Positions 4,201 through 39,300 of a stretch of 64,000 nucleotides of DNA are shown here, piece by piece. Numbering within the stretch: the first letter of the stretch is position 1; each line of letters opens with the position of its first letter. The notes beneath the pieces were generated by a model. It searched no databases. It was not told where the DNA came from and saw only the letters and a program-made list of their open reading frames with translations. Source of the stretch: Amoebophrya sp. A120 (lineage: Eukaryota > Protista > Dinoflagellata); NCBI GenBank assembly GCA_905178155.1, contig CAJINV010000007.1:3366265-3430264 (forward strand). The letters run 5' to 3'. The translations under genes and the position numbers were made by a program.

Positions 4201-6938
4201 CAACAGCATCGAGGAGTCCTCCTGCTGGAGCTGCACCAGAGGGGCAGAAGAAGGAATTAGCGTCACATGTCGCAGAGCAGACGAGCAGCGAAAATAAGCC
4301 ACAGACCACCTCCTCTCCGACAAGCACCACCGTTGGCGACTCCCCCACTGGCGCATTTCCTCGAACCCCTGTGAACGATTTGACCTGGAAATCTCTTTCG
4401 ACCCAACTGTTCAACAGCAAGGAGGCTGATCTGTCAGCGGCAACAGTCATCATCGAGCTCTACCATCGGGATCGGGATAGAAAGTTTGAGAGGGAGGCGA
4501 TTTACCACACGGCCGCGCTGGTCTTCGAGGAGTTGGAGAGGTTGGAGATAGGGAGCAAACCAACCGGGGCGACGTCGCAGATACTTGACGGCAGTGCGGT
4601 CGTACTCGGGAAGAAAAAGTCGAGTCTTCGTTTCTTCCGCTACGACATCAGCGAAAATTACGTCAGTCCGGAGATTTTCGGCGAGAAATACCATAAGCTA
4701 TTCGGGGAAACAAGTATCGGGAGGAAAACGGAAGCGACGGAGCAAGGGGCTGTGTTTTTGTTCCACGGAATTGAAAATACACCTGCAAGAACTGCTGGCG
4801 ATAGAAATACACTGACCACCGCCTCCAAAATAAATTCGCTGGCTTCACTTCGTCGCGGCCCCCCTGCTGTTTTTCCGCTTTCGTTTTCGGGGAAGGAGCC
4901 CAGAGCGCTGTTGGAAGGGTTGGTCAAGTGGATCCACAAGAAAACGACAACGTCCTCGTACCCAGCAACGGCATCAAGGGCTGCTTCAGCGAAAAATCAG
5001 CTTCGAGACGCGTTAGACCTCGTAAAGGATTTCGAACCTGAAATCCTTGCTCGGGCAAAAACGGCGGATGACAACGAAAGACGGCAAAAGAAAGAAAAAC
5101 AAGCGGCGATTGATAAGATGATGAAAACGCTGAAGCAAGAAAAGGGCTTGTACGACATCCGAGACAGTGCCTTCATGTCAGCGGCGAGCGGAAATGCAAA
5201 TGGTGCAGGAAGTGCTACTGGAGGAAGCGGAGGAGAACCAACTGAAACCAAAGCGCCCCCGCTGAAACAGTTCCGCGACCGTGGGGGAGTGAAGGACGAT
5301 AAAAAAGGAAAAAAGATGAAACCGAAAAAAGCGAGGAAACAAGGACCGACAAAACGCTCAAAGGAGCTGAGAGCCCGAGCTGCAGCTGCGGAACGGCGTG
5401 CAGAAGAAGCGATAGAGAAGCAGAAGAAGGGGAGGGAAGAAAAGCTGCAAAGACGCAAGGAGGTTGTAGCTTCGCCTTCGGCGGCTGCTCGTCATACTGT
5501 TCCATCTGCACCGAAGATCATGAAGAAAGATCATGTCGCTCCAGAAGAGATGATCCACACAGTTTCCTGGGGGCAGACGAAAGACACGTTGCACCTCACC
5601 CTGCACTTCTCTTCCAATTTCAAGTCCTGTGTGACAGAGCACCTTCTTAAACAGGGCGAGAAGAATAAGAACACGAACCCGCGCAAGTTTTTCGACGCTG
5701 TCACCGTGAAGATTGCGGAAGAGCAAGATGCTGTTGTAATAGAAGCGGAGTTAGACGACGACGAGGACGAGCAGGCAAGCGCAGCATCAGTTTCATCCCG
5801 GACCACGACTTTGTCTTGCGCTGGCAACAACATGACGCCTGTGGCCTTCCGCACGACGACCCGTCTCAACCTCCGAGAATTTGTCCGGAAAGAGACCCTC
5901 GAGCTTGCGTTTCAGGGCCAACAGACGAGAGACGCAACAGCTTCCACGTCAGTGACTGCACCAACCGCCACCGTCGAAGCGCAAGCGATTCTGACAGTGC
6001 GAAAGAAGATTCCGCACCGGTGGGACCGTTTGTTGGACACTTGCAGTGCGAAAAAGGGCAAGGCGTTTTTCGAAACAGCATGCAAGACTACAAGCTCCTT
6101 CCAGCGCCAGCACTCAGAAAAAAACTATAGGAGCAGTTCAACATCAATGCCTTTCCGGTTGAAAAAGGATTGGGTAAAGGAGGACCCGAATTTGGAGGAG
6201 GAGGAAGATGTGGAGCTCCCCAAATGCAAAGATTTGAAACCAATCACCGGGTCGCAGCTGGAGCTAATTTTCGAAAGAGGAAGCGCTGATCATGTTGCGA
6301 GGTCACAAATTTCAATTGCTGTTGCATGTCTTTTCGTAGGCGCATGGTTCTATGGTGAATGAGACGCTACGCCGCACGTCATCTGGTGCAGCAATTTGTG
6401 ACTGTGACACATTCATATTGCGAAAATTCAATTTGAAATAGAAACTCTTCTACAGGCCCTCAATCGCGTCGACGACAGCATTGCAGCCAAGCTCAAACGA
6501 GACAAGTTCCGAAAAATCCAGCGCCGTCTTCCCCCGCATGCTCGTTCTGTTAGTCCGTCACCCCTGGTGCCGTGCCTGTGAGGAAAAGGACCGGGAAATC
6601 GTGAACTTCGTGAAATGGAAATCCAGCGAACTGCCGGCCAATTTGGTGAAGTTCGCGGTCCTTGACGCCAGGGAGTACAAAAATGTGGCAAGTCGCTTTT
6701 TGCAGGACCATTCTGCTGCGTCCGCGGATGAAAATTTCAGCGGCGGAAATCTTCCCGTTCTTTCTGCCTGCGACGCCACCTGCCCTCTGCACGTCTTCAA
6801 GCGTGAGGAGGGGCTGGATAAGTTTTACGTCCTACCGGCGAAGAAGTGGCACGAGGAGTACTTGCTGGATATGTACCAGTATGCGGTGCCGCTCGTGACT
6901 CTGTTCAACCAGGAACTAAAGCAAGACGCTGAAGAAAA
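1233..6938 (+). CDS. 5' part of a large secretory-pathway thioredoxin/PDI-like protein with a CS(p23)-like domain (exons 1233-6301 and 6456-6938), interrupted by the retroelement
   Basis: 1709-aa ORF with an N-terminal hydrophobic segment and CS-like motifs (SWGQTKDTLHL...KKIPHRWDRL...KDW). Phase-2 GT-AG intron 6302-6455 joins an exon with the thioredoxin motif PWCRAC. The frame continues at 21205 after the element. Confidence 0.75.
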
Positions 6939-7058
6939 TTATGAGATCTAAGGTTTTCGTAAGGAAATAGTTGATCGTCAATTGTGGGAGTTGTCTATAG
7001 TCGGTTTCGTATCCGGGGCTGTGAGCATCCGGTCACCACACTCACACTCTGTTGAAAA
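6939..7058 (+). repeat. Split direct repeat A1 (120 bp)
   Basis: Matches 20751-20870 with 1 mismatch. Confidence 0.95.
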
Positions 7059-7389
7059 GCGACTTTCACGTTCGCCCTTCGGCTTTTGCCTTCGGCATTG
7101 TGGCAGCTCCTTTTCGCGTGTTTGGTCAGCAAACACTGCTCCGACTCGCCTCTCGTCGTCCCGGTTTCTTCACTTGTATGCTTGTTGATTGCGATGTCGT
7201 TGGGCGTTAGCATGTCCGCTGCGCACACACGACAGGGCAGTCGCTGGTGACAGTGCCAGCACCTCTCGCTCAGTTGTTGGACAGAGTACCTCATTGGTGG
7301 TAGCAGCACGTATGCATGTGAAGTCGTGTCCCGAACACACTTGGCGTAAGGCTGCCGCATGTATGTGTTCTATGGCTCTTGGCTAAGAC

Positions 7390-8188
7390 ATGGCATGCTG
7401 CGTGTTGATCTTGTCATCACACATGTTCACAAGGTTAGACATTCGTACTGCTTACCGGGATCATACGATGTCTGTTGCAAGAGCGAAAAAAGATCTTTTA
7501 GAGCTCTTACAGTTTTGCCGTGCGTCAGAGACAACAGTAATACGAGTCTGGTCGTCCAACAAGATGGTCGTCTCTCTGTCCGCAGCGGATCTTCCGCAGT
7601 TGCAACGCATTATGTCTGCTTGCTCTAACGACGTCTCGCTACACACCCCTGTGTGGTGTGCGCTGGTGTACGGCAGCCGCGCCCTGGAGTCGGTGGCCAA
7701 CATTGTGGAATCGCACGCTTTGCGCATGCAAGCAGCAGGTCCGAAGGTGGTCAACGAAGCGAATAATGACCCGATGACCACGGTTGCCGCCGTGGAGGCC
7801 ATGCGCCGCACAATTACTGAGTCTCACGACCTGACGGTGAGCACTTTGATGGTATGTTTTTTTCCTTTTGCGATACGCATGACTGCATGACGCTCGATGA
7901 TGCTGCATGATACAACCCATCAAATTGTCTCAGGAATCGGCGCAGACGGTGCTGCCGGGGACGAAACCCTGCGCCAAATTCAAGCAAATGCTCTGGGAAA
8001 TTCCAGTGGTGATCCCGCCGCAGTTCGCGGCCGCCAAGGCCTGGAGTCCCAAATTCAAGGAATGGGTCCACGGCACAGCCCCGATCCAGCAGACTGGTTT
8101 GGTGCGCCTGTTGATGGACCGCAACGTGGCGAAAATGTTCGAAGACGCGAGTGCTAGTGTTAGCACTACGAGTACTTCCGCAAGCTAA
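7390..8188 (+). CDS. Element accessory gene 1, unknown function (exons 7390-7851 and 7934-8188; ~238 aa; start uncertain)
   Basis: ORFs 7390 and 7907 are joined in phase 0 by GTATGT...CTCAG intron 7852-7933. Confidence 0.6.
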
Positions 8189-8436
8189 ATTTCCCACAGA
8201 TTCGTGTCGTTACAAGACGTATTTGTCTTTATGAATTAGACGAACCAGTCTAACTCTCAGGACAATTCCGAACACGAGTTCAACTATTTTGAAACTCTGA
8301 ACGCGAATTACTGGCACTACCATCTTGACCTTTCAACGTAATGGTGTTCGAGCTTTTCGTTTCTTTTGGTCGTGTTGTAGCTCACGCCGTTTCGCATAGA
8401 TTACTCTTGAGCCGCCGTGCAAGCCACAGCGAAATC

Positions 8437-11121
8437 ATGTCAAGATGCGTAATTTGTTACGACGACAGCGTGGTAGACGCTGGCAGGGAGCTATGGTGCA
8501 CAGAAGTCGCCTGTGCGAACAAGCACTGCATCTGCTCCACCTGCTACTCCAGCAAAGGAGGTGTCATCCTGATCGCCGAATTCGGAGCCTGGGGCCAGTC
8601 CACAAAGTGCGGCAAGTGCAAAGCATGTGACAGATCCAAGACAGTTGCGAACTCAGCAAAGGTAAAAGATAGAATCGACCAGCGAGCAGGAACTGCAGCC
8701 GTTACGGAGCAAGTCATCGCAGCTTTCCCTTGGTGCGCCCAATTCGCCGCTACGTCGGTAGAGAGAAAGGCGAAGTACTACGACATTCTGAAAAGGCCGC
8801 CGATACGCCGCTCCCAAAAGATTGAGAAAGATCAAGGAAAGTACATGATGAAGCTGCTCGGTCAGTGCCTGGCCAACACCAACCAAGCGGCTCAGGTACG
8901 CTTTTTTGCTTTGTAGCGCAACGGACTTTGATTGCCTAGTAAATACAGCATGACAAATTCTTCATTGTTATCACCACAGGACTTCATCGACAGCACAAAC
9001 ATGCAAGAGATTCCGAAGTGTTCGTGGAAGACGATGATTCTCCCGCCGGAGGGATCGCTGTTGGAACTCAAGCAATACTTGCAAACCTTGACTGACTTGT
9101 TTCCGTCCGAGGATTGGATCACTCTGGCCCGATATTTCTTGTGGCCCGTGACCTACTACGAAAAAAAGTCGGCCGCCCTGACCAAAAACTCCGTGGCCAA
9201 GAAGAGTTTGTCTTTGAATTACAATTATCAACTGTGCAGACATTTTCCTTTTCATGTTGCTCTCGTCTTGACACGTGATACGCAAGCAGATATCCATGCA
9301 GATCACCACATAACTCTCATGCGATTGTTTGCTAGGTAATCACAAAAATTACAAAAGCCAGGTATTTTCTCATCAAAGATTTTGCGGCCGCCCTCAAAAA
9401 GAAGTATCAGCCGGCCGATGGCTCGCAAATTTGCCGCCTAAAAGGCTGCCGATTTTTTTCTAATATTGTGGGCCCCACATTGTTCCGGCATGGCGCCCCC
9501 CTTGCTTCTTTTCGTCGTGGCCCCGCGAGTCTGGGGCCCCGAGGGTTCTGGAGGTAGTCCGGGCACGGGTTTTGTCGTCGGTAGTTTTTGCAGGTTTTGG
9601 AAGCTGGGGCGCTGGGGATTTGCGTTTTTAGCATTGTTTGGCGAAGATTGCCCGCCCCGGGGTCTCCAGGGCCCGGGGCGCATCCGGCCCGGGGTTGCCA
9701 AGGTTTGCGCCCCTGCGATGTTTGCGCCCCAGAAGGAAGGCAGCGCGATTGTTTTCCATTTGTCTCGGGCCGCACATCAATGGCCCCGGCCCGCCCGGCC
9801 GGGGTTCACGAGGGGCGCAGAAGTGGGGCGGGGGGGGGTCTAATTTGGGCTCTAATTTCGCGTCTAATTTGTTTCTAATTCCAGCATAGGGAATGTGGGG
9901 GGATTTGCAATGAAAAAAATTAGCCGTGATTTAGCCAGGAAATTAGGCGCGAAGTTAGTCGCTTGCCTTAGCATCGATTTAGGCAAGGAATTAGCCGGAG
10001 GCAAGAGGCGCCCCGCCCGGCCTGTTTCCGGCTAGGCGGTTGGTGTTGATCATTTTGCCGGGCGGCTTCCCGGCTTTTTGTGTGGGCGAATTGCCGCCAC
10101 CCCTAATCTTGCATCTCGCGCCTGACCCCCCCTCGGGGCCGCCTCCCTTCTGGGCCATTTTCTCTCTGGATGGGAAGAGCCCAGCGGCGTTCGGTATTTG
10201 GCCGCGAAGTTCTTGGCCCCGTTCGTTTTTGTTGTCCCGCCCAACGTGATTTCTGCCCGGTGGCCTTCGGGCTGGGTGTTGTCTTTGGCGGCATTGCCGC
10301 CACTTTCTTTTTTTTGTTTTCCTTCGTAACATTAGAAAAAAGATAGCAAGTTTTAAGCCTTGGAGAATGCCCGGGGTCGGCTGCCTGACAAGTACGTCGC
10401 GTCCGCGGTCGACGAGGCATTTTACAACCTCGAGTACGCCTGTGCAATGACGCAGGCGGCTTGCGATAATTTGTGCAAGCCCAGTATTATGCAGCGCATG
10501 ACGCAGATAGGCGGAAGCTTCATGTCGATGATCGCGGGAGGCGGCGGCAGGAACGCCTTCCCTGAGCTGGGACAGAACCCCACAGACAGCAACGCGATCC
10601 AGCAAAAGAGTCAGCAGCTGTACAACGAGATCAGCCGCATCATGACCGAGGCACCGCGCACCACCGCAGGAGCATACGCTGCGATGGAAACGGCGAAAGC
10701 CAAGAGCGACGCGATTCTGTCGCAGTGGATGCAGAAGACCCAGAGCTGTGTCAACTGCCTCATGGGCGGCAAGGGTCCAGGAAGCCACCATGTGGGAAAA
10801 AAGATGGGTTTGAAGGCCTGCTCAGACTCGAACAACACGCGCTACATCAAGTGCCCACGCCCGCAGTGCAACGGAGAAGCCCACTGGAACAAGAGCTGCC
10901 CGGTCGTCCTTGCAGGAAAGAACGGGGGTGGCAGCCAGCAGTTCGGTGGGAGCCAGCAGTTTGGTGGTAACCAAAATTTTCAAAAAGGTCTTGGTAGTAA
11001 TTTGCTCCGTCCGTTCAATGGAAATGGAGGTCAACCGTTTGCGAAAAGAACCAAAAACAACAATGGTGGAAAAGGGCGCAACATTTCTAACGTCACTACT
11101 TATGCCAACCCCTTCAACTGA
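8437..11121 (+). CDS. Gag-like protein with N-terminal C3HC4 RING finger and C-terminal Zn knuckle (exons 8437-8895, 8980-9205, 10358-11121; ~482 aa)
   Basis: CVIC-x18-C-x3-H-x2-CSTC-x21-CGKC RING pattern; CPRPQCNGEAHWNKSC knuckle followed by a Gly/Asn/Gln tail; GT-AG introns 8896-8979 (phase 0) and 9206-10357 (phase 1) keep the frame. Confidence 0.7.
9336..10357. other. GC-run-rich non-coding insert within the gag intron, with a central divergent CTAATT/AATTAG array; probable degenerate nested element
   Basis: Abrupt compositional shift to G/C and A/T homopolymer runs. CTA at 9840, 9852, 9864 and 9875, then TAG at 9921-9992 every 11-13 bp. Same design as 18260-19486, but no clear TIR/TSD. 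Confidence 0.5.
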
Positions 11122-11386
11122 CGAAGTAACCTGTTTCAATTTCTTTATCGATAAAAGAATACATGAGTCAAGGCAGATACAAGCGCCCCCTTTTCCATGG
11201 CGTCAATGTAGCTCGACGCCGACGGTGGCATGTTCTTTGAAGTTGTGTCACGCAGGAGAGATCATGGCAAGAGATTAGTGAGTCCTCACCTTTTCTTTTA
11301 TTTTCTTTCTTTCGTCTGTTGCCCGGTTCTTCCTGTTGTTGCGTCCGGAGTGCATTTTGGCACACACAGATCTTCCAGCAACCTCT

Positions 11387-13680
11387 ATGACAGCCTTAGT
11401 AGGTAGTCACTTCACGATGAGCAAATTAATTGCAAGTGATGCGATAAAAGACGCTCTTGGCCAAGAGGTCAGGCAGCGCGAGTTACACAAAATTGCTGAG
11501 CAAGCGGCGGTAGCAGCATCGCTGAAAGAATTAGCGAACGCTGAAAGGAAATCAAGCAAAAAGCCGATCGTCGCGCCACCACAAGCCGCACCTATCGCCC
11601 CCGCATCATCGAAGCGGAAAGCACCTGAGTACTACAGCGCTCTGATGGACGCGGTGGAGACAGAGTTAGTGTGTGTGGAGGACTGGCACGAGGAGGCTCT
11701 AGAGGATTTCAGCGCAATCGTGCCGTCGTCGGGATTCGTGACTGCCGCCTCCTCACCAGCGGCGGAGCATAAATTCGCGACAACGCTATTCGGAGTTACG
11801 GGAATACGCGAGCACATGGAATTACGGAAAGAGGCGCTGAAGAAACCGCTGGGCACACTAATGTGCATGAACGCCTGGGCAGATGTATCGCAGTGTAACT
11901 CCAGCGCATGCAATTCGTCGCAAGGAGCAGCAGCTGGCTCTGTGACGTCGTCGAGTTCAACTTCATCGAGTGCAACGTCGTCAAGCGACGCCACGTCCGA
12001 CTCCATCGCAATCATATCGAAACCGGGAAACATAGTGCTCACGACTCCCACGCCGTCGATAGCGAGTGTTTTACATTTTTACCAGCAAGCAAAAGGAAAA
12101 GCCGCAAAGAATTACACGCCAGTTTCGGAAGAAGGTCTCAAGATCGATTTTACAATAAAGGCCGCAAGCAGCGAGATGTTCGGTGCCTTCCCGCTTTCGG
12201 ACCAAGCAGCCCAGTTATTAGAATCGGCGACCGCGGACCACGCCAACTCCTCGATAACAGAGGGTACGTCGAGAAGCTACACATCGATCTTGTCGAAGGT
12301 GATCCCAGCCGTCGCGCGGGAATTAGGTTTCATTCTGTGGCCGATAACCACGGATGCCGAGGCAGCGCTGCTGTTCGTGACGTTCGCACATGTTCACTCG
12401 GTCCACAGCGCCTACAAGAATGAAGATTCGAATCGAATACGGTGGGGCGCTTTTTTACAATTGAGCGCGGCGATAAACGCCTTCAATTCCTCGAGAATCG
12501 AGTTAAGCGGCTACACCACGAAGAACAGAGGAGCTTTCTTCCAGAAGCTATGGAAAGGGTGCGTTTTATTTGTTTCTTGTCGCCAAAAGTTTGATGATGG
12601 TTTCTCTGAGCACAAATTGTTGGAACTTCGTCACGAGTCATCACATATTTCCACAACACAGGTTCAAAAAAGAAGCACACCACGGAGCCCCACTGGATGC
12701 GAAGTGGTGTCCGACGTCCACCGAGATGCTCGACGCCTACACGACCGAATGGGAGCATTGGCAGCGACACCACAAGCACATGGTAGACAGCGAAGGAGAT
12801 TTCCAGAAGAAAGTCTTGAGAAACATGTCGCGCAACGATATAGATCTAGTTTTACGACTTCAAAAATTAGCGATAGTTGTCGTAGCTTTCTTCTGTGTTA
12901 GACGGAGCGACGAGGTCAGACTGCTGCGGTTGCGTGATGTAACAATCACCGCGTCACCAGGGTCGGGGCCGCAGTGCGCAGTTTTCGTTTCTCAAGCAAA
13001 GAGCGACCAGCTCTCATTCGGCTCCCTCAGAAGCCTGGGTGCCAACGCATTTCACAAGAATGATAGCTGATTACCAGCGATTTGCCCGCGCCTTCTTTGA
13101 CATAGTACTAGGACGAAAAATGGCCCCCGCCGACGCCTTTTTCTTCGTCATAGGGAATGCGAACATTAAAACCAGGGGTGCGTTCAAATCTAGCAAAGAT
13201 GGTATTAGGAAAGACATCAAAGCCTTTTTCAGCTACGCCTTGCCAGGCACGGTCCCTGAAAAACCAATCTCGCTGCGCAAAGGGGGAGCAAAGCATTATA
13301 TCGAGCACGATGTCTCGCGACGTTTCGCTTATTATCAAGGCGGATGGAGGAACAGCTACTGTCTTGATGTGCACTACGCACCTATCTCGAGTATGGAACT
13401 AAGACAGATGGCAAACAGACACTCGTCCAAAAGCTTAGAAACCTATGCGAATATCGCAAGCCTGCGGGCACTTGACCGCGCCCACGCGATATATCTACAC
13501 GATGATGACGCGATCAAATTTTCGCGCGAGGTCGAGAAGGTGGCATGGGACAGAACCTCTTTAGAATCCTTCCAGGAGGAATGCCCCAGGCTTTTCTCTC
13601 ACGCCGCGTGCAGCTCTTGCGATGCGGCAGTGTACGGAAAAATTTTAGATTTTTTATCAAAATGCGACGAAGATTCATAA
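11387..13680 (+). CDS. Tyrosine recombinase of the retroelement (intron 12559-12661; frameshift near 13036-13039)
   Basis: Box I AFFCVRRSDEV, catalytic K in QAKSDQ, ISLRKGGA (HxxR box with H replaced), GGW and DVHYA nucleophile. The phase-2 GT-AG intron joins LWKG|FKKEAH. Confidence 0.85.
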
Positions 13681-13914
13681 GCGAAAATCTCACACCAAAC
13701 ATGTAAATCTCAGCCACGCAGGCTTCTCGCACTACGTGATATGTTGTCCTTGTTTGCAGCTACTGGCACAGAGCGTCAGCAGATCTGAGCGCAGGCGCGA
13801 CGTAGAGAGAAACGCAAGTGGTAGCACACGGTGCAAACCAGATCCAAAAACTCACTACCGCAAGCAAGCATTAGCCTAGCGTTAGCAGCTCAGCCTTAGT
13901 TTACAGTAGAAATA

Positions 13915-15030
13915 ATGGAACGACCGCTAGGGCATTTGTCAGGATGGCGCTTCTGGTTCTTTGTGACCAAGGTGACCATGCAGAAATGCTGGTTGCTCTT
14001 ACAGCGTCTCAGCACCATACCGCAGTTAATGGCACGCGCAGTCTACGATGACGATAGAATGCTCGTGGACCATTTCTTCCGCAATTTCCGGTCCGCACAG
14101 CACTGGACTTTCCTGGCCAAGTTCTATACGGCAACCATACTGCGCGTGATGGTATTTCTAGTTCGATTACATAATTTACATGCATCTTTGGGCGCAGCGA
14201 AAGCCTTTTCATTAACAAATTCTCATGATCAAAATTAACAAGGTTCCGTATATTCTGATCGAAATCGGCATCATCGACGGGCAATCGCTGATGTGCGCAT
14301 GCATTTCTTATGCAGTAGTCCAGCGGGCGGAATCTTGTCGGTATTTGTTGTTATTACCAAACTTCAGGGACAATTAATAGCAATCCACATATCCTTCTAG
14401 TACCGAGCGCAAAAAATGGACCTAGGAAATCTCGACTATTGCGAAAAACTGCCGTTGCTTCGGCAGGCAAAGTCGATGCGATCCATGATCGATGATTTGA
14501 GTACGAAGGAGCAGAACAATTCCACCTTTTCGCAAGTTGTCGCTTCTTATCGCTGGTGCATGCGCAAAACCCTCCCCAAAAATTGTGACGCCAATGAGTT
14601 ACGCAACACCTGCGCCGTGCTGTTGGACACGCTGGAGGCAATTTGTGCCAAACAGAAGTGTCAAGCGAAATTAGCGGAGGGGATGGCGTCTGCGATTGAT
14701 TCGCTGTACAGCCACCTGTCGGAGATCTGGAATTATCCGGCCCAGGACGAGGCGATGATGGGCCGCAAATGGGCGTCTGTGCTCCTCGCGCGCCAGTTCG
14801 CCCACACCGCAGTGCAGATCTATCGCACCTACCACAAGCAGTCCTCCGCCGACATCGCGAACTTCTACAACCACGAGAAAAAGAAGTACAAAGAAGCCCG
14901 CTTGAAGCAGTTCAACTTGCGAAAGGAAGGAAAGGCTCTGCATGATGAGAAGAAGGAGGAATCCAAGAAAGAAGACTTGCAGAAGCCGTCTGAGGATGAT
15001 AGCTCATACCCGTCTTCGGATTCTGACTAA
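13915..15030 (+). CDS. Element accessory gene 2, unknown helical protein (exons 13915-14151 and 14401-15030; ~288 aa)
   Basis: ORFs 13915 and 14416 are joined in phase 0 by GTATTT...TTCTAG intron 14152-14400; charged C-terminus. Confidence 0.6.
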
Positions 15031-15057
15031 ACAATTTTAAAAAATTTCTTCTTCAGT

Positions 15058-15432
15058 TGTCTCGGACGGATTGTCGGGTCGCAGATCGCAGTGCGCAACT
15101 TCGTTCAGACCAGCGGGCGACTAATCGCACGCGCCTTGGCTCGATGCCTGGAACTGCACCCGGAGCCGTATAGTTTTACCTTTCTTTCCCTTTCGCGCAA
15201 TGGCGCATGTTTTTTGTTTGCATCATGATGATATTGGCATGACGAAAATACTTTATACCACTTAGAACCAAATCACAATCACTCGATCAGGTTAGATGAC
15301 GACCTGCCACCGAGCAGACACACATCCTCATCGGAAGACGAGCGAGTGGATTCGTCATCGGGTGATGATTCTGATGCGGAGGTCGTGAACCCGCAAGAAG
15401 CCATTGATGCAGTCCACCAGCACCAAGACTGA
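15058..15432 (+). CDS. Possible further element exons (15058-15167 and 15291-15432), acidic peptide, no own ATG
   Basis: Open frame joined by phase-2 GT-AG intron 15168-15290; in the same frame as accessory gene 2 just past its TAA. Confidence 0.3.
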
Positions 15433-16001
15433 TGTGTGTCAGTCTCATCGTGGATTTCAAAAAAATTTGTTCATCTTGTAGAAACATTTGACTCAACAAG
15501 AACGGAAAATAGATAGACAAAAACACAGACGACAGAGGACCACGGCAGCAGGATTGTTCTTCTTTCGTTTTGATCACAATCTGTGCAAGAGCATCGGTTT
15601 TCAGTACTTTGCTGCGTCCTTTCCAATCGTCAGTGTCATTTTGATTGTCGTCGTCCGATCCCGCTACCGTCTATTCCAATAAGCTTCCCGCACAGTTTCA
15701 CAGATGTCATATACACATGTTTGGTTTGTAAGTGGGCGCAGGTGGCCTCACGAGCGAATATGTTACTTTCAGAAACTAGAGAGAATCGAGCGCAACTTCA
15801 TGTGCAACCTGAGGGGTTGCTCAGACGAGATTTTATGTGAAATACAATCAAACTGGCTACAAAAAAATGCGCACCTCCTCTCCACGTCCTCCGCGGACGC
15901 ACATGAAGGCCTAGCGGCAGCATGCGCAGACGCGAAATGTCATTTATCTAGGTTTCGGATTTTTGATCTGATTGAAAATGAGCGAAAAATGAGATAAAGA
16001 A

Positions 16002-19000
16002 ATGCGCTCGTCACCTCTCGTTATGTTTTGCGGGGTGCAAATAGGCCGCTCAGCAGCATTGCTGCGCGCACAAGATGCGCAGGACAAGAGAGCAACAAAA
16101 AGACACAAGACGCAGCACGCCTCCTTCTGCGGAGCCCAAATAGGAAAGCCACCAAAAGTAGCGGAGCCGGCACAAGAAATTCATCACTGGATAGCGCAAG
16201 AAAATGCGGCATCAATCATGAAAGATAAGCCGAGGCCATGCAAGAAGGATTCGCAGAAAGAATGCGACGCGTGCTGGGACGACCCCTCGCTGATCTTTCC
16301 GCAGGAAACAGTGGTGACATGGGGCAGCCACTTACCGCAGCCGGGAAAAGCGCCACGAAGCCATCAGTGCGACATCGACACCGTAGACCTGTCACGTCTG
16401 TTTACATGCGGGAATGAGTTCGGTGACCCTTTCAATTTCGCGCCGTGCTCCCCCTTCAAAAAAGAAGACTACGAGAAGGCGGGCGCACCTCTGACACGAG
16501 CAGCAGGCAGGAAACTGCTGCAAGACCAAGAGGGCCCGAGCGACAGGTGGCGCAAGGCCGAGGATGGCCAGGCGTTCGCGGGTCTAACGATAAACCCAGA
16601 AGAATGTGTACGGTTTGGACTACAGCCAGAAGTTTTGCTGAAAGCCTGCACGGGGATAAAGTTCCAACAAATCGCAGAGCACCTAGACCCGGTAGTATGC
16701 GAGAACTACCCGGCGGCCAAGCAGAGCCCGGAGGTCTACAGTAACGAGCTCAAGCGCTTCTTCGAGTGCAAAAAGATCATCCTGTACGATGTGAAATCAG
16801 AAAAGAACGACAAAGGCGAAAGTGTGGAAGTGTGCGACTACCCCAGCGACTTGACGCGCGTGCCAGGAAATCTGCTGTTCCAACGCGACGACAAGATCAG
16901 GGTAGTCAGCGACTACAGCAGCGAGTGGGCCCTGATAAGCCAGTCCATTTTTTCCACCGAAGTAAACTACAAGACCTACTGGGATATGTTTCTGCTGCTG
17001 AAGCCGAACTCCGTCGGGAGTGGTATCGACTTCATGGACTCCTTCGGCCACTGGTTGGCGCACGCACGTTTTCGCCGCATGCTTGGAATAAGTCTCGAAG
17101 GGACAGTACAAAAAGGAGGACATTTGTGCTGTCCTTTTGGCATCGGACCAGCACCGGGCGAAAGCGATTTCTTCGTGAAAGCATTTCTTGCTGCAGTGAA
17201 GAGAAACGGAGTATCGTCGCCAGCACTCGACTACGTAGACGACGTGAGATTTATAACCAGCCCGGTTGACGGCAAACCACACTTCGATAAAGCCAAGCTC
17301 GACCTCGGCCGAGCAGTGTACATACTTACCCGCATGGGCATCAAGATTCACCACAAGGAGTCGAAGCTAATACAGCCGTCGACAATTTTCCCCTGGCTGG
17401 GAAACGTTTTCAACACAGACCCGAGGTCGTGCAACATCATGCTCGAGCCCAAAAGGCGCAAGGAATACCTGCAAGCAGTGCGAGACTTCAAGCAGGCAGG
17501 CAGTAACAAAGAAGCGAAAGCCAGAGACGTAGCCAGCATCAAAGGAAAATTAGGTTCCTGCGCGCTCATCCACCCACGCGGGCCACTGGACGAGCTGAGC
17601 AAGTTGCTGGTAGCTTCAACAGCACCGAAGCAGTGGGCGAAGCTGAGCAGGCAGCTCAATCCGCCAGTTGAAATCTCGGACGCCGCTTTCGAAGACTTGG
17701 ATTTGTGGGAAGACCTGCTGTCGACCGACCACACAAGACAAATGCTCTTCAACGGCGAGCAGACCTTTATTTGGTCTCGTGAAGTCTTGGCCTTCGGAAA
17801 AGCCTTTTTCGCGTCGTTGGGGCCAGAGCTGTTTATCGGTGTTTACATGGACGCAGCAAAAGGCGACATCGAAAACTGCGAAGACCGAAGAAACAGAGGC
17901 TGGGGCGGCACCGTAGCGGACCACTATTTTCGCGGACTCTTCGATCGACGAAAAAGTGCCAGATACCGCCAGCATCAACGAGCTAGAGGCCTTGACAGTT
18001 CAGCACGTGCTAGACGCGGCCAGAGAGAAGTTAGGAGACGCATATTTTCACCAGAAAATAATCCTGATCAAAACCGACAATCCAACGGCAAAAAGAACCA
18101 CGAACAAGGGCTCCGCGGCAACACCGATTCTCAAGAACGTGACGAAAAGCTTGACATCCTTCGCTTCCAGCACAGGCACAGAAATAGTCGCAGCCAAGAT
18201 CGCGGGCGAAGTGAACATCATCGCCGACGCCCTGTCACGCCACGAAGAGCATTTATTTGTCAGTCAGAGAGCCCCCGGGCCGCGGGAGGCACTAAATCCC
18301 AGCTAATTTTTGCGGGATTTCCCCGAAGCCCATAGGTTGGGCGGTGGTTTTCTTCCCCGGGCGTTGAAGGCCCCCGGGCCCGCTGGGTTCCTCCCTTTTC
18401 CGCAGCTCCCGGGGACCCGGGTTTTTCGCAAAGCCCCCGCTGACCCGGCGTGCTTTTTTCAATGAAAAGGCATGGCGGGAATTAAAATTTAAAAATTCGG
18501 GCCGTTTGCAGGGGATTCGGAATTTCGAACGCCGCGGGGGCTTCTTTGGTATTTTCGTCCCCGGGTGGCCCCGAAGGTGGTGGGTAGCGCTCGCGGTCTG
18601 GCTTTCCTGGGGGCCCTCGGGCTTTCGGATTGGGCTGTGAAGACCCCAGCCGTGTGGCCAATGTTGAAATCCCTCCGCCCTATCATTGCTTCACTTTTTC
18701 GCAAAGCCATTGTCGTTTGGCTTTTCGAAAGCACCGCCAGGGTTCCCAGTTTTCTCGTGTTCTATTTTGGACTTCTAAATGTGCTCGCTGTTTTGTTTTC
18801 TATTTTTCTGCGGGATTCGCGTGTTCGGCAGCTGTCTTTTCATCTTCTATTTTTCGCGACACTGGAGATTTCCAAAGGAAATCCTCCAAAGCGCGAATTT
18901 AGAAGTTGAAAAACAGCCGCTCGAGCATGCGAATCCCGCAAAAAATAGAAAGCAAAATAGAAGCACGATTTAGAAACCAAAATAGAATACGATTTAGAGC

Positions 19001-20529
19001 CCCGATTTAGAACATGGAAATAGAATACGATTTAGAGCACGAAAATAGAATACGACTTAGAAGCAAAAATAGAACCCAAAAATAGAAACAAAAATAGAAC
19101 CAAAATTAGCCGGGGAATTAGCAGCGAAAATAGCCGCCCGCGGGGGCTGTTTCGTGTGGGTGTAACTGGGTGGGGTTTCCGATGGTTGATGTTGTTTTTC
19201 GGGCGGCTTTGGGATTTGGGATTTTGGCTTGTGGGAATTCGTCCTGTGTGAGATTGCCGCCCCTGCCATACTCCATGTGCAGAAGGTGGCCTGCTTCCCA
19301 TTGGGTGCTTTTTGTTTTCCTGAAGTTCCTTGCCTGATTGCTTTGGGATCTTATGTGGCGCAACTTGGGCGCTCGGTTTTCCGGGTTTGGGTCTTCACCC
19401 ATTGTCCCGGGTCTCGGGGTTTGAAAAAATCCCGCAGAAATTAGCTGGAAATTAGCGGCCGCCACCGCCCCGGGGTTTCTGGCTGATATTTGCGTTTAAA
19501 GATCCTTTTCCGGATAAAACTTTGCGCAAGCGCTCGTGGAGCATTGTGATGCGCGAGATACCGGGTTTGAATGTCGACTGTTTTGCAGATCACCACAACT
19601 GGCGTTTCCCGGAATACTACACTGCGCACAATCATCCGCTCGATAGCTTCGACGTGTTTTATAACAAACGTTCGTGGTGGTTCCCACCAATACGCCTTGC
19701 AATAGTAGCAGCGCGCTTCCTCGCCAACTTCCAAAAGATTCCAGTAGCTCAAAGACCACGCTTTGCGCTGATGCTGCCGATGATCAGCCCCATGTTCTAC
19801 GACCTAGCGTCCAACTTCGTGCAGTTCTGCACGTACAAAAAGGGTTCCAAGGTGTTTTGCGCAGCGCAGTGCCCACTCGTGTACGGAGCACACGAAGACT
19901 GGATGTTGTTGTTGTCTGTGCATCTACACGACTGGGGAAGAGACAGAGAAAAGACAGAAATAGGCGCGCAAGTTACAAAAATTTTACGCAGGCCTTACTT
20001 TCGTCAATTTCCCGAGCTCGCTAGGAGCAAGTTAAGAATTATGGATATTTGCTATGCGCGCGAGCGGTTTATAGTCCACAACACATGCTGCGTCCCGTGC
20101 AAGCCCAGCGGTTTGGCGGCACAGCTGTTTGCAAAATATCCGAAGGCAAACCGCTACGGGGAGCCGTTTTCTGCGAAACCACTAGGAGGATATGAAGTGA
20201 TAGGAAAAATTGTCAATATTTACGCTATGGTCTGGCCAGGAAAACCCGTCCTCAACAGAGTCCCACGACCATCAGACGTAGTACCGGTAGAAGCATTTAC
20301 AGCAGACGACTCAGCAGAAGCTCGTCTTTTTCGTTTCAAAAACGCGTTGCGCGACTTTATTTTGTCAATCATAGACGAGACAGAATCAGTAGCAATCCCG
20401 CTCAGAATTGGACAAGGCTCATGCGCAGGAGGACAAAAAGAATACTGCGCAGTGATCGCCAAAGCCATCGACGTCGCATTTCGAAACAATGTAGACGCCA
20501 GCATTTATGAGAAGCCGCGCGCTCTATAA
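16002..20529 (+). pseudogene. pol: reverse transcriptase - RNase H - DNA N6-adenine methyltransferase-like - macrodomain; disrupted by a 4-bp duplication (17941-17948) and a nested insertion (18260-19486)
   Basis: RT motifs GIDFMDSF, CPFG, YVDD, WLG. RNase H motifs YMDAA, INELEAL, KTDN, NIIADALSR. MT motifs VDCFAD...WFPP...LMLP. Macro motifs IVHNTCC...GLAAQLFAKYP...VAIPLRIGQGSCAGG. Confidence 0.85.
18260..19486. mobile_element. Nested non-autonomous TIR element (1,227 bp) with 6-bp TSD TATTTG
   Basis: Imperfect ~60-bp TIRs (TCAGTCAGA...CTAAATCCCAGCTAATTTTTGCGGGATTT vs AAATCCCGCAGAAATTAGCTGGAAATTAG...TCTGGCTGA). TATTTG at 18254-18259 and 19487-19492. Removal restores HLFAFKDPFPDKTLRKRSW in frame. 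Confidence 0.85.
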
Positions 20530-20570
20530 TTTCAAATCCACACACCTTGCCCTGGGATACTCTGGAATTA

Positions 20571-20750
20571 GCGCCCAAACTACACGTTTGTAGCATGTGC
20601 TCTGTTCTAGTCCTAGCTGGAAAACGCAGATCACTTCAAGATCAAGACCTCGTGGGTCATTCGGTCTAGATCGCGTGTGTGTGTGTCGGGTACTGAGCTT
20701 GTGCGGTCGCTCAGCAAAATAATTACGAAACCTTTGCTCTACGACAACAA
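20571..20750 (+). repeat. Split direct repeat B1 (180 bp)
   Basis: Matches 21025-21204 with 3 mismatches; directly abuts A2. Confidence 0.95.
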
Positions 20751-20870
20751 TTATGAGATCTAAGGTTTTCGTAAGGAAATAGTTGATCGTCAATTGTGGG
20801 AGTTGTCTATAGTCGGTTTCGTATCCGGGGCTGTGAGCATCCGGTCACCACACTCACATTCTGTTGAAAA
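20751..20870 (+). repeat. Split direct repeat A2 (120 bp)
   Basis: Copy of 6939-7058; B1|A2 reproduces the end-to-start (circle) junction. Confidence 0.95.
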
Positions 20871-21024
20871 CCCACCCACCCGCACCAAACTGTGTCGGCT
20901 CTGGGCAGTGTTCTATGAAACAATTCGGTCGTTTCGTTCATCACGAAAAGACTATAGATAGCTCCCACGATTTTTGTATAAATCGTTCAAGCCACTACCC
21001 GTTCACACCAGAGCATATCCATGC

Positions 21025-21204
21025 GCGCCCAAACTACACGTTTGTAGCATGTGCTCTGTTCTAGTCCTATCTGGAAAACACAGATCACTTCAAGATCAAG
21101 ACCTCGTGGGTCACTCGGTCTAGATCGCGTGTGTGTGTGTCGGGTACTGAGCTTGTGCGGTCGCTCAGCAAAATAATTACGAAACCTTTGCTCTACGACA
21201 ACAA
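21025..21204 (+). repeat. Split direct repeat B2 (180 bp), right end of the element
   Basis: Copy of 20571-20750, followed immediately by host coding sequence. Confidence 0.95.
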
Positions 21205-23700
21205 CTTTAATCGGGAAAAGGCGTTCCACCAGTGGCGAACCGCTTTTCACACTGGCATTGTGGCGTACTTCCCGCCCGGGGTGGTGGATCTGGATGAGAA
21301 GGATATCCAAGCAAATACAACCGACGTGAAAGCTCATGATATTGCAGCGCAGAATGGCACGGTGATTGAAGGGGGAAAGAACACCATCAATACAACAAGC
21401 AGCGCAACAAGAACGTCACCGCTGTGGGAGAAAAGCGCCAACACGATTTGGTTAGATTTCCTAACTACCGCTCGCGCGCTCCGCGGAAAAGCACTGTTCA
21501 GTGCGACGAACGACTTGCGGATGGTGCACAATGCCGCTGAAGGCAATGAAATGAATGCTGTTGCTGACGGAACGGCAACGGCATCAAGTCCTCGTGATTC
21601 AGTTTCATCATCGCACGATGAAACAAGTCGCCAAGTCCAAATCTACGTTTTCAAGTCGGCCGAGAACCGTGCGGTAAAGTACCCGACTCCGGAACAACTA
21701 ACCGCAGAGAAGCTGACCGAGTTCAGCAAAAGACTCGCAGTTCCGCTCGTCTCCAACTTTGATTTTCACTCCAGGCAACAGTTAGCAGAGTTGAAAATGC
21801 CCATTGGGCTCCTCTGGGTGCAGAATCAGGACGAAAACATTGATACAGCTCTTGCCAAACAGGAACTGGAGCGGAAAGGAGGGTCAGCAAAGAAAGTCAA
21901 TGACAACTACACCGGAGCTGCATCGTCCGGCAGCGTTTCGGAAGATGACAGTGGCGAAGAGATGAACTACCGCAGCGAGGAAGAGGATGTAGATGAAACT
22001 ACCACCGCCGTTGAGATCGTCGAGAAACTGGCGCGGAAATTCGAGGGCAAGATGGCATTCGCGAAGTTAAATGTGACGACCGAGGGCATTTACATGCGGG
22101 AATTCGGGTTTCACCCGGCGAGATCCCTTCCAGCGTTCGGAATTGTCAACACCGTCGACGCGCTGACAGGCGGTGCTCCAGGAGGAATGCAAGGAATGCC
22201 GGGGTTGGAAGGTACAGCCTGATTGCTCGTGTAGTGGTCCGGCGGTTGTACTTACCTCCGCTTTTCCTTTTTTCGTCTCTTTGACAGCTTGCACTACAAA
22301 ACTTAATTTTTTGTCTAAGAAGCAAGCTTGCACTACACTGTCTCTTTGACAGTGAGATCAAGATGTTTTACTATTCATAAGGAGGGAACGAAGGGGACCT
22401 ACAGGCACGAATCTTGTTCGAAATCTACATCTCACAAGGCACGAAGTCCTCGCTCGCTTTGGACGGCGGAGCCCGCTACGCGTTTGCAGAACGGGTGACA
22501 CAGGGTTCGGAACAGAAGTTGGCCCAGTTCGTCGACACCTACTTGCACGACCAGCAGAAGCTCTCAAAGGCTTTTCGCACGAACGAGCTGTCGGCGAAGT
22601 ACGAATGGCTGGCGAATCGGGGACAGGTCCAGGAAACGGTGTGGAGCCGACTGTGGGAAGATTTGGGATGGTGGAGCGAAACCAAAAAAGACTCTCATGT
22701 CCTCTTCGAGCTCTACGCGCCGAACCGTCCGCAACACTCTACCCACATGCTGCTGGTGAATTTGCTTGCTGTCGCGCTGAAGAAGGTGCAAGGGTTCAAA
22801 ATTGTGCGAATGGACACGGAAAACAATCACGTGCCAGAGGAATTCAAGAAGCCTTCTTTCGCATCAAGTTCATCTAGCAAGAATAAGCATCTGAGGTCTG
22901 AGAAACAGCACAACTCAGCGCCCGGAGCAAACATTTTCGACACCGCGAGCGGACAGGCTCCTGCAGCAACGGAATACTTCTTCCTCGATACGAAGGCAAG
23001 GAAGGTTACACGCTTCAAGAGTTTCCAAAGCGCGAAATTGCTCGATTTGCCGGTGAAGTTATTGCAGTTCGTGAAAACGCAGCTGGAGAAGGGAGTAGAA
23101 GGCTTGGAAAGAACTGCACATGTGCAACAGGATGAAACTGCAGAGACGGAAGATGAAAAAGAGACGAGCAAGATCGCTGAAATAAACGAAGAACCGTCAA
23201 AATTTGCGAGTGGAAATGCTGCTCATGTTGCTCGTGCGCAAGTAGAGGAACTTTCCACCGCAGATTACGAGGAACGTGAGGAGGCGGACGAGCACCGCGA
23301 GGTGGACGAGCCACGGTTACTGACATCAAACCCCATGATGATCGGGTCTACTTCAGGGGCTGTAGCTATGCTATCTCCTTCCTCTCTTTTTTCTGAACAC
23401 GGCCACTTCAAACCCGAGCCCCTCCCGGTCGTCTTCAGTGCCGCAAAAGAGTTTGTGAAACGGGAAGTCCGCGAGAAGGTGCGGAAAATGAAGCGGATCG
23501 AGCGGGAGCGAGAGAAGAAACACCACGAAGCCTGGGCGCAGTACGAAATCGAGGAGTTTTTACGGTACGAGAGGAAAGGATACGACTTACACGGAGCCGC
23601 TGGGATGGCCGGGTCGTTGGGGAATCTAGCTGCAGGAATGGGTGGGGGGAAAAATGGAGGTGGTGGTGGCGGGGGCGGCGGGAGAAAATCTAAAGATTGA
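21205..23700 (+). CDS. 3' part of the thioredoxin/PDI-like host gene (exons 21205-22211 and 22382-23700)
   Basis: PDI b'-like segments (EKLARKFEGKMAFAKLN...REFG...LPAFGI; LFELYAP...IVRMDTENNHVP) resemble repeats in the 5' part. Phase-1 GT-AG intron 22212-22381. Confidence 0.75.
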
Positions 23701-36300: not shown

Positions 36301-39300
36301 CTCGCGCCATCGCCCTGACCGCTGCGAAGCAACGCGAACTCGCCTCGCGGCAGCGCGAAGCGACGGAGCGGCTCGCGCTGCCGATAGCGCACCAGACCAA
36401 GCGACTCCAGCTCGGGACCACCACGGATTCGCGCCCCGGAACACCCGCCTGGGTGAGTAATCTCGTGAAGACCTCGCGAACCCGCGAGGAGGCCGCGCGC
36501 CGGGGCGTGGCACCCTCGCCGCCGAACGGTCGGCGGAAGAAATGGGACGAAAGCAGCCGGGTGGGCGGAAACAAAAAGAGAAAATACCCGCCCGGAACGC
36601 CTGGCGGAAGGTGCAGGTCGAGCGGACGGAGTGGCTACGGTTTTTCAAACGCGGAAAGGAGCCGGACGCCGACGTATTCAGGGTCGAGGATTGTCAATTC
36701 CGCTGGTGCTGCGATGAATAGCCGGGGTTTCACGTTTTACTCCGTTGATGCCAGCCCGAAAAGTCAACATTTTGGTGGCGAATACTACAACCAAATCGCT
36801 TCAGGTAACAAACTCCGACTGTGTTGTTTTTGTCGTGCGATTTCTTGCCACGTTATTGCGTACATTTTCAGGTTTTCATAATTTCCTTTTGTAGACTGCA
36901 TGAATGATTTCGAGTCATCTTTATTTCTATCGTCATTACGTTTACCTTGTTTACCTTTACGTACAAACTAAACCCAGACAACGCCTACTGGGTGCCTACC
37001 GCGGAAGAGAAGCGGCGGCAGGTCGCCTGGGAGAGGCACCACGCAGCGGAAGAGTCTGCGCGCAAGCGTGAAGAGGAGAGGAACGAGAAAATTGCTGAGT
37101 TGCTCAAGAACCTCGCGATTCACGGGGAAAGCGTGCGGCCAAAGCTTCCGCTCGAAAACGACATCAAAGTGGATGACGTTGGGGCGGAGGATGAGCTGGA
37201 TGAGGTAAAAATCAAAGTGCTCATAGTACAATGATCATGTTCATCATAATTGTTTTCTGGCAACATAGGCATGACCTCTAGATCAGCTGCATCATCTGTG
37301 TGATGCTCGACTGTGCCTCTGCTCTTGAAATGACACATACGTCTCATTCAGGCCGAGCAAGAGCGCATCCGGAGCAAAGTCCCCGCGCCGGCCCCACTTG
37401 ACGTCGAAGTGACACCCGACGACGAAGGAGACAATGGCACCACGGTGAAACCCCAAGCGACTACAGAGACGGCGGAAGTTGGTGCGAAAGCGGAGTCAAC
37501 CACAGAAAGCACTGCCACTGCGCATCAGCCACAGGAAGCCAAAATGAACCCAGAAGATGCGATTACCCCGAAGCCCATGGGCCTGCAGGAGAAACAAGTC
37601 ATCCGGAACCGCTTGCAGGAGGAGCTCCGAGCGTTGGAAGCGGGCGCGAGGGGGGATCAGCAGGACGAGAAGATGAAAGTAGGAAAAAATAACGCCGGCA
37701 AGAAAGAGATGAAATCAATGTCTTCATCGAAGGAGGGAAAAAAATCATCTTCCTCGTGTGATGAAGTTGAAGAGTCCGGAGATCATTCCGGGGTGAACAC
37801 CTACTCGTCTGAGTTCCTGTCAGAAGACAAGACAGAACAGGAGGGGCCTTCAGATAGAGATACAAAACTTAAGCAACAAAATCAAAGTGTTGCTCCTGCT
37901 GCTGACGCAGGTACTCTTGACAAGGAGAAAAAGACGAAAAAGGAGGTTGTAAAGGCGCAAGATAAAAAGCCGTCGTCCAGCAGTAGTTCGTGCTCGCCCG
38001 GATACACGACGCCGGAGGAAGATGAGGATGAAGCTTCGTCAGATTCGTCGCAGAGTTCTTCGTCGTCACCAATAAACCCGGACGAAGATGAAGGACCGGC
38101 GGACGAGAAGAGAACGTCGAAAACGAAAAACACCAAGCTTGGGTCGCCAAGCATTCTCCCGGAGAACGTGCATCGACACCAAATCGCGGCGGTCGAAGAT
38201 CTGGTGGCCCAAGCACGACTGCGGGCAAAGCAAAAAGCGGAGCAGCAATCATCGACAGACACGTTGAGCAGAGCAGGTTGGGAGATTTTTTGGATTCTTG
38301 TTTCTGTGTCACGTGGTGCAACATGAACATGATCGTGTTGAGAATTTTTTTAATATCAGCTTTTGCGTGCTCCTACTCCTTCAATCTCTGGTCCTGATAG
38401 ATCGCATTCATAATTGACGTTTTATTTTCCAGGTCCTGAAGACAAGGACGATGACGACGAGCAGCATGAGAGCAGTGCCACGACGAAGGGGGAGAACGAC
38501 GACGAGACCGAGGAGAAACCGCACGAGATTCCCCTGTACTGTAGATTTCTGCAGCCAACTGACCCGATCTACATGCAGTCGAAGGCGTTCGATCCCAATT
38601 CGGTATTTTTGCTTGGGTCTTGTCTCCATCTGTGTTCTTGTCGATTATGTTCAGTCTTCTCGACTACTACAAGCAGCCAGTTCTTTCTGATGTTGTCCCT
38701 GTCATGCATCATTGCGAAATCTTATCGTTGTATGTATTCTTTGACTTGCCAGTACCAGTACTTACGCATGTACACTACATGTTCTGCAACTGCAACTCGG
38801 GATGTTGAACGCTACGCCCCTTGTAAAAAAACCGAACCCGCACCAGGTCCCCGCCACGTCGCTGATGAAGCTGCTGAATCAGTCTGGCACCTGGTACCAC
38901 GAGGATCCCTTCGACCAACCGCCGAAGGATACCCGTTGTCTGTGCCGGGATTTGAACGAATCATTTATCTGGGTGGAAGACGACCTTCCGGATTCAGATG
39001 ACGGTGCGGAGCACGGCGAATACCCCGAGGGCTTGCCGCCGGGTATGAGTCCCGAAGAGTACGAGGAGATGATGCGCATGCTATCAAATGTATAAATGTC
39101 TGGGTCTGGAAGAATGGAAGGCTTGTCATGCTTGTCTGGCATGACCCATGATGCTTGTAATGCATGACCCAGCATGACAGATTTTTGGAAAGCTTCCTGA
39201 TGCCATTTCCGCATGACAAATTCCCTCCTCGCGTAGCACAAATGTGGCTCCTCTTGCTGGTCATGCAATACAGATTTTTTTAGAGTCCAAAGTTAGCATC

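Follow-up and report, generated by a model that had tools for sequence, protein, structure and literature searches.

The retrotransposons that most resemble the element described here—a 14,266 bp unit (6939–21204) within a 64,000-nucleotide stretch of DNA, hereafter ‘the window’, from the dinoflagellate Amoebophrya sp. A120 (GenBank assembly GCA_905178155.1, contig CAJINV010000007.1, positions 3,366,265 to 3,430,264, forward strand)—are the PAT elements (Pat1, Toc and Kangaroo), the VIPER/TATE elements of kinetoplastids and a set of elements from Symbiodinium. Kangaroo-1 is about 10.6 kb in length, and in VIPER the genes run in the order gag-like, recombinase, reverse transcriptase (RT)/RNase H. 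PAT elements are defined by a methyltransferase together with split repeats, in a source that cautions that structural traits are homoplastic (PMC4157794), whilst 28 DIRS1-like elements are listed at 3974–6283 bp (PMC3266345). The Symbiodinium elements are described as carrying A-B-A-B repeats and a captured Dnmt3, and as occurring in two forms with a shuffled order of recombinase and Pol (PMC5890265); Dam domains are reported to be widespread in the DIRS order (preprint 10.64898/2026.05.21.726589).

Our preferred explanation for the Amoebophrya unit, which we consider probable, is that of a split-repeat retrotransposon copied via an unspliced RNA, integrated by its recombinase, and producing five proteins from separately spliced messages. 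By structure rather than by phylogeny, we assign it as a predicted variant of the DIRS order; one that combines a PAT-like structure with a VIPER-like gene order.

Ends, insertion site and lesions

The unit is bounded by split direct repeats in the order A1...B1-A2-B2 (Table 1) and encloses five coding units—open reading frame 1 (ORF1), gag, recombinase, ORF2 and pol—all on the + strand; its extent, repeat layout and gene order are those that an earlier, sequence-only reading of the window had proposed. When two nested inserts are omitted, with one 6-bp flank each, 12,045 bp remain, in agreement with the ‘about 12 kb’ of that reading and to be set against 4–6 kb for DIRS1-like elements; about twice the usual size of the class, as far as the published descriptions go. 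The 154-bp spacer between A2 and B2, the interruption of a host exon, the pair of frameshifts and the likely introns of ORF1, gag and the recombinase gene are additions made here.

The left junction of the element repeats the B1/A2 join, and this join and the host site have only AA in common. There is no target-site duplication: the host flanks rejoin in frame, as for the DIRS order, yielding a single open frame of 505 codons across the empty site, and the element sits within an exon of a host gene for a thioredoxin/protein disulphide isomerase (PDI)-like protein. The region of this gene comprises 6442–6938 and 21205–23700, and the interrupted allele is probably null unless a second copy exists. 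The element ends are direct repeats, with no terminal inverted repeat pair, and so depart from the DIRS1-like layout; nor did we see a Crypton-type terminal feature at the element, or any Rfam family in 6300–21500. An internal complementary region in the A2–B2 spacer is not claimed, its complementarity to repeat A scoring 43 against a shuffle maximum of 46.

Because the A and B repeat pairs together differ at only 4 of 300 bases, we judge the insertion into the host exon to be recent; and because it carries two frameshifts and two nested inserts, we take the copy to be now dead. One frameshift lies in pol near 17941, beside a 4-bp tandem duplication, and the other in the recombinase gene, between about 12970 and 13065. 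Both inserts look like non-autonomous DNA transposons of later arrival, with end motifs in common and no clear internal homology. With each insert and one flank removed, the gag tail and the RNase H–methyltransferase–macro frame are open, the linker in pol then being within one residue of its length in relatives. An interpretation of the inserts as canonical introns was rejected, as GT-AG cuts in their flanks break the frame. Their inverted arms are only 75–81% alike, with many small indels, and homopolymer density peaks in the two inserts (31–39 runs/kb versus 8–27 elsewhere in the window), making their interiors suspect; these may be low-quality sequence. The interior of insert 2 (18755–19100) also holds a 240-bp hairpin (18755–18992) along with short tandem repeats of the AAATAGAA type, and another element may be nested there.

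Table 1. Coordinates, within the window, of the element, its predicted parts and the flanking host sequence
Feature	Position	Strand	Details
Host thioredoxin/PDI-like coding sequence, left of insertion	6442-6938	+	WCxxC motif in translation
Repeat A1	6939-7058	+	119/120 bases same as A2, BLAST E 1e-56
ORF1	7468-8188	+	About 212 aa; two predicted exons (7468-7851, 7934-8188); frame open once 7852-7933 removed
Predicted GT-AG intron, ORF1	7852-7933	+	82 nt, GC 0.43; second T-richest of 40 GTRYG sites; shifts frame
Gag-like gene	8437-11121	+	About 495 aa; N-terminal C3HC4 RING pattern, C-terminal Cys/His knuckle-like motifs
Predicted GT-AG intron 1, gag	8896-8979	+	84 nt, GC 0.39; in-frame stops; third T-richest of 40 GTRYG sites
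Predicted intron 2, gag	9234-9361	+	Acceptor 9335 or 9361; weakest of four
Nested insert 1	9407-10388	.	982 bp; TCAG...CTGA ends, imperfect inverted repeats; 6-bp flanks alike at 5/6; interrupts gag
Likely tyrosine recombinase gene	11417-13680	+	Long N-terminal leader; one predicted intron, one frameshift
Predicted GT-AG intron, recombinase gene	12559-12661	+	103 nt, GC 0.40; T-richest of 40 GTRYG sites
ORF2	14416-15030	+	204 aa; charged C-terminus; open frame, coding-like codon use in 3' part
pol gene	16002-20529	+	RT (YVDD), RNase H, Dam-like methyltransferase, macrodomain; broken by frameshift near 17941 and insert 2
Nested insert 2	18260-19486	.	1227 bp; TCAG...CTGA inverted ends; exact 6-bp target duplication; interrupts pol
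Dam-like adenine methyltransferase domain	19493-19950	+	Matches 8/126 fetched proteins, best E 7e-13
Phage-type (T4 Tk.4-like) macrodomain	20011-20526	+	Last 170 residues of pol; ESM Atlas, hhalign, profile rank
Repeat B1	20571-20750	+	177/180 bases same as B2, BLAST E 2e-85
Repeat A2	20751-20870	+	Pairs with A1; predicted circle junction at B1/A2 join
Spacer between A2 and B2	20871-21024	+	Unique, 154 bp
Repeat B2	21025-21204	+	Pairs with B1
Host thioredoxin/PDI-like coding sequence, right of insertion	21205-22211	+	Pfam Thioredoxin_6, E 8e-13

Coding content and relatives

The domain labels of the sequence-only reading fared unequally, those of the RT and RNase H being strong and those of the methyltransferase and macrodomain supported, whereas the recombinase has motifs and weak scores, the RING has a single pattern match and ‘Gag’ is a label by position. 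A search of 1.84 billion representatives with the RT (16002–17939) as query found 115 proteins that pass E<=0.001, the best of them (E 7e-44) being 31% identical. The catalytic DD of the RT is kept, as, by alignment, are the RNase H motifs, and 24 of the 126 proteins fetched have a match to the RNase H piece; an RNase H placed after the RT is the arrangement of the DIRS order. No element frame matches the Pfam models for RT, RNase H, recombinase, Dam, RING or Macro, and a Pfam scan of 24 relatives found RVT_1 in 12 and Dam in three, one of these at the cut-off. It is through these relatives that a predicted methyltransferase after the RNase H is supported; DNA_methylase (the Dnmt3-type cytosine methyltransferase) had no match in any frame scanned.

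Several tests support a macrodomain as the last domain of pol; it shares the reading frame of the methyltransferase and is predicted to bind ADP-ribose. Pfam Macro occurs in 27 of the 30 nearest ESM Atlas clusters (best score 0.94); hhalign against relatives of T4 Tk.4, which itself passes Pfam Macro, gave a probability of 75% (E 3e-5); and a Tk.4 profile scores this region highest (E 0.006) among 969 segments of the window. Modelled from the single sequence, the fold reached a predicted local distance difference test (pLDDT) score of 36, rising to 66 with phage macrodomains as the alignment; the latter model matches solved macrodomains, a comparison that is partly circular and biased by the input alignment. 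A macrodomain of this type was present in none of 133 fetched proteins, and neither a PDB sequence search nor a phage tblastn with the methyltransferase–macro region returned anything useful. Macrodomains are present in some LINE (long interspersed nuclear element) retrotransposons.

A lookup covering 30 of the 115 RT matches placed two as gene models of Amoebophrya AT5.2, g6114 (P0009) and g16992 (P0021). Both share RT motifs with the element and have recombinase sequence preceding the RT, and P0009 runs on into RNase H and methyltransferase; the two are only 27–32% identical to the element, however, and are known from gene models, with repeats, introns and accessory genes lying outside their view. 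After its methyltransferase, P0009 has a JmjC/Cupin_8 domain (residues 1530–1700), either cargo or a fused neighbour gene. The C-terminal extension of another relative, P0024, was rejected as a macrodomain (probability 1.5%). P0123–P0125, single-frame proteins of 2200–2370 aa that begin with a methyltransferase-like region, continue with RT and RNase H and end in a recombinase-like part, are another large element type. Members of one RT cluster (P0138, P0139) are labelled as bacterial proteins from metagenome-assembled genomes, probably through eukaryotic contamination of the bins.

In a quick RT tree of the 56 of 134 proteins that cover the RT core, made from these sequences and no curated references, the element falls in a 33-row group (Shimodaira–Hasegawa-like approximate likelihood-ratio test, SH-aLRT, 97), from which 16 rows, many of them bearing the usual D-L-x-D-A-Y motif, stand apart; a 21-row subgroup (94) within the larger group contains the Amoebophrya models. 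The element branch is long (1.72), a long-branch join was flagged, and no starred set of at most half the rows includes the element. The tree supports placing the RT in a divergent group of mostly unnamed sequences. A word-index protein search with the RT gave no match and profile searches gave only five longer and three near-length distant proteins. No related locus was found in viral contigs, or in metagenomes with the element RT as query; two short contigs (1.8 and 2.5 kb) reveal an RT without revealing gene order.

We regard the gene upstream of ORF2 as likely, though not proven, to code for a tyrosine recombinase, because split repeats and the lack of a target duplication surround a gene that bears the motifs; these (R, K, x-S-L-R, G-G-W and Y) occur in Cre order. 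A profile from eight Cre-like proteins ranks its middle piece first of 969 segments, yet only at E 0.055; the same profile finds the matching part of P0009 at E 0.008, and alignment of the recombinase to P0009 scores 76 against a shuffle maximum of 56. Pfam, PHROG and NCBIfam scans gave no match for it.

The gag frame is open when its two predicted introns and insert 1 are omitted. Its RING pattern is the sole match in 969 six-frame segments, with 2 of 300 shuffles reaching one, whilst the single CCHC-like match to a zinc knuckle, a feature of Gag in the Pat1 subgroup, is no better than chance, as one arises in a third of shuffles. No envelope or capsid fold was found, and the description ‘virus-like’ given by the sequence-only reading is not retained. 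For ORF1 and ORF2 there is no family or homologue in Pfam, further family scans or the fetched proteins; ORF1, ORF2 and gag have matches at E<0.01 in 0 of 133 fetched proteins, and a match of ORF2 to an antiholin was weak, below the cut-off and probably spurious. ORF2 may have upstream exons in 13900–14400. Short frames with some coding-like signal occur both there and in 15290–15990, and may be extra exons.

Predicted splicing, proposed mechanism and rival explanations

ORF1, gag and the recombinase gene are each likely to be split by GT-AG introns, as predicted from composition and reading frame. The intron segments have a GC content of 0.39–0.44, against 0.51–0.54 in the coding parts, and a low coding score in all frames; when the 40 GTRYG sites of the element are ordered by T-richness, the three main donors come out on top, the motif having been chosen afterwards. 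Tested against P0009, removal of 12559–12661 was the joint best of 190 options, gap-free, scoring 74 as against 66 unspliced. For gag intron 2, the coding score is again low in all frames and removal of 9234–9361 leaves an open frame. T-rich tracts also lie upstream of gag, recombinase and pol (21, 25 and 19 T per 40 nt, the maximum in 62 coding windows being 17), and the phase of a short leader with a donor at 7361 suits acceptors before ORF1, gag and recombinase; it does not suit ORF2 or pol.

Beyond the ends, target site and domains, which are observed, we infer the following for the RNA steps, for splicing and for the roles of methyltransferase and macrodomain. A full-length unspliced RNA would be the template for reverse transcription, and the GT-AG introns would persist because the packaged template is unspliced, with spliced messages supplying the proteins; the T-rich tracts before gag, recombinase and pol could act as acceptors for a common leader exon or a host spliced leader. 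On the DIRS model, the RT would then give rise to a DNA circle closed at a junction identical to the B1/A2 join; the recombinase would cross this junction into a short matching host site. From the type of domain, we would guess that the methyltransferase and macrodomain modify or protect the new DNA, or the element proteins, against host chromatin or ADP-ribose marks.

A number of observations weigh against this interpretation. The splices are predicted rather than observed, and come from one copy; the gain against P0009 is small and tied with a GC donor, and a splice model that trained itself on the host genes failed to converge, giving the element acceptors poor ranks. Ahead of ORF1 and ORF2, the T counts (15 and 16) do not exceed background, and a single leader phase that fits three of five genes would arise by chance about 1 time in 5. 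ORF1, ORF2, the RING-gag and the macrodomain occur in no relative examined. The recombinase stays below significance, its joined read (E 0.14) as well as its best piece; profile–profile comparison by hhalign gives probabilities of only 4% and 1%, and it went undetected by a profile built from Cre and three further element recombinases. Donor and recombinase motifs alike were picked after viewing the sequence, and the shuffle controls are generous. Ile also replaces the first catalytic His of Cre; as P0021 and P0009 likewise carry Ile or Val at this position, the missing His would appear to be a trait of the lineage and not a sign of decay.

The rival that survives best, though we think it unlikely, is an ordinary three-gene PAT-like element of which only this copy or subfamily picked up ORF1, ORF2, the RING part and the macrodomain as genes of host or foreign origin, with their introns. 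The RT proteins of relatives do mostly end 78–133 aa past the methyltransferase motif, the macrodomain is missing from all of the fetched proteins, and in P0009 the recombinase adjoins the RT without an ORF2-like stretch between them; but the core recombinase gene also has a predicted intron, the macrodomain shares its frame with the methyltransferase, and P0024 and P0009 bear other C-terminal extensions, so extra domains recur in the group.

Appreciably less credible, and both to a similar degree, are two further explanations. The unit might now move as DNA, the recombinase circularising or copying it without an RNA step so that introns are trivially kept; recombinases do act on DNA, and introns and large size are described as easily kept in DNA transposons (PMC13465315), but here the catalytic DD of the RT and the RNase H motifs are kept, a Crypton-type terminal feature was not seen, and near-identical A1/A2 and B1/B2 pairs are what template-switching reverse transcription renews. 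Alternatively, the ‘introns’ might be unspliced, as small insertions or linkers with frameshifts in a decayed copy; a copy that does have other lesions (two frameshifts, two inserts), and in which, with 190 options, many GT-AG pairs restore the frame by chance. All of the segments, however, start with GT and end with AG, are low in GC and of similar length and have T-rich donors, and none has inverted or direct repeats, whilst the slight divergence of the terminal repeats leaves little time for four such insertions.

An assembly artefact uniting unrelated repeats is the least probable of all: the inserts do have the highest homopolymer density in the window, and arms that differ by small indels as in error-rich sequence, but misassembly is strongly argued against by the matching repeats, the junctions and the in-frame rejoining of the host exon halves, with A and B repeats placed as the model predicts and both inserts having clean ends and flanking repeats, with open frames around them.

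Comparison with known elements and implications

With PAT elements, as described in PMC4157794, the Amoebophrya retrotransposon has in common its A1-B1-A2-B2 repeats, RT/RNase H followed by methyltransferase, a (likely) recombinase, and the lack of a target duplication. It differs in that this likely recombinase is encoded ahead of pol and on the pol strand, whereas that of Kangaroo and nematode Pat1 is described as following the methyltransferase (PMC4157794), and in having five non-overlapping genes, likely introns, and RING and macro domains.

The likeness to SymbioDIRS-Dnmt3, as that element is described in PMC5890265, extends to the alveolate host group, A-coding-B-A-B repeats, a captured chromatin-related domain in Pol, a divergent RT poorly detected by Pfam, and a shuffled recombinase/Pol order; the gene order that the sequence-only reading called unusual thus has a published precedent. 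SymbioDIRS-Dnmt3 has a cytosine methyltransferase and is annotated as intronless, in contrast to the Dam-like domain and macrodomain found here, the two being compared by description only (PMC5890265).

VIPER/TATE elements, according to PMC6681497, also have split direct repeats and a host with trans-splicing, and the position of our likely recombinase ahead of the RT and RNase H recalls VIPER, as the sequence-only reading had remarked. VIPER is described as having three ORFs and no methyltransferase, with introns going unmentioned in the text of that source (PMC6681497); the presence of a methyltransferase-like domain here likewise sets the element apart from Ngaro, which is devoid of one.

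The sequence-only reading had further proposed a new, cargo-bearing lineage; the supposed cargo, seen in a single copy, is only a candidate family trait. What stands of this is a large split-repeat element of the DIRS order with an RT in a divergent group; what does not is the diagnostic value of split repeats plus methyltransferase, which already define PAT. In a literature that was mostly open-access, and in which a prior description is possible, we found no account of introns or a macrodomain in DIRS-order elements, or of such elements in Amoebophrya. Size, gene order and introns have precedent; the macrodomain, the RING and the five-gene layout are the new parts, and come from one dead copy.

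Elsewhere in the window, nearly all long host frames lie on one strand, and a tandem array of 7-bp units (TTCTCGG/TTTCCGA-like) occupies its start (1–295). Three related elements of 260–420 bp (39082–39642, 48428–48848), with inverted ends starting TATCAAATG, are introner-like or resemble miniature inverted-repeat transposable elements; a second family of short inverted-repeat elements is found at 44594–44899 and 60294–60534, the first of which, flanked on either side by a long host frame, is possibly a non-canonical intron. Inverted-repeat elements within host genes, as seen here, are like those described in PMC7789003; along with the one-strand bias of the frames and the AT5.2 matches of the RT, they would fit an Amoebophrya-like host.

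The clean insertion into an exon gives an exact target site for the likely recombinase. If the family as a whole has this layout, a retroelement can retain introns and five genes through RNA-based copying, and the introns would naturally mark the RNA that serves for reverse transcription. A macrodomain in fusion with Pol would hint that a protist host counters its retroelements by ADP-ribosylation, in the way that hosts counter RNA viruses. A more ambitious proposal, that of an undescribed superfamily-level lineage in marine alveolates, with five spliced genes, inherited introns, a recombinase that has lost its first catalytic His and a macrodomain of phage origin acting to erase host ADP-ribose marks, we put forward as tentative and rather doubtful. 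Were it true, the macrodomain would be the first anti-defence module of that type in the order.

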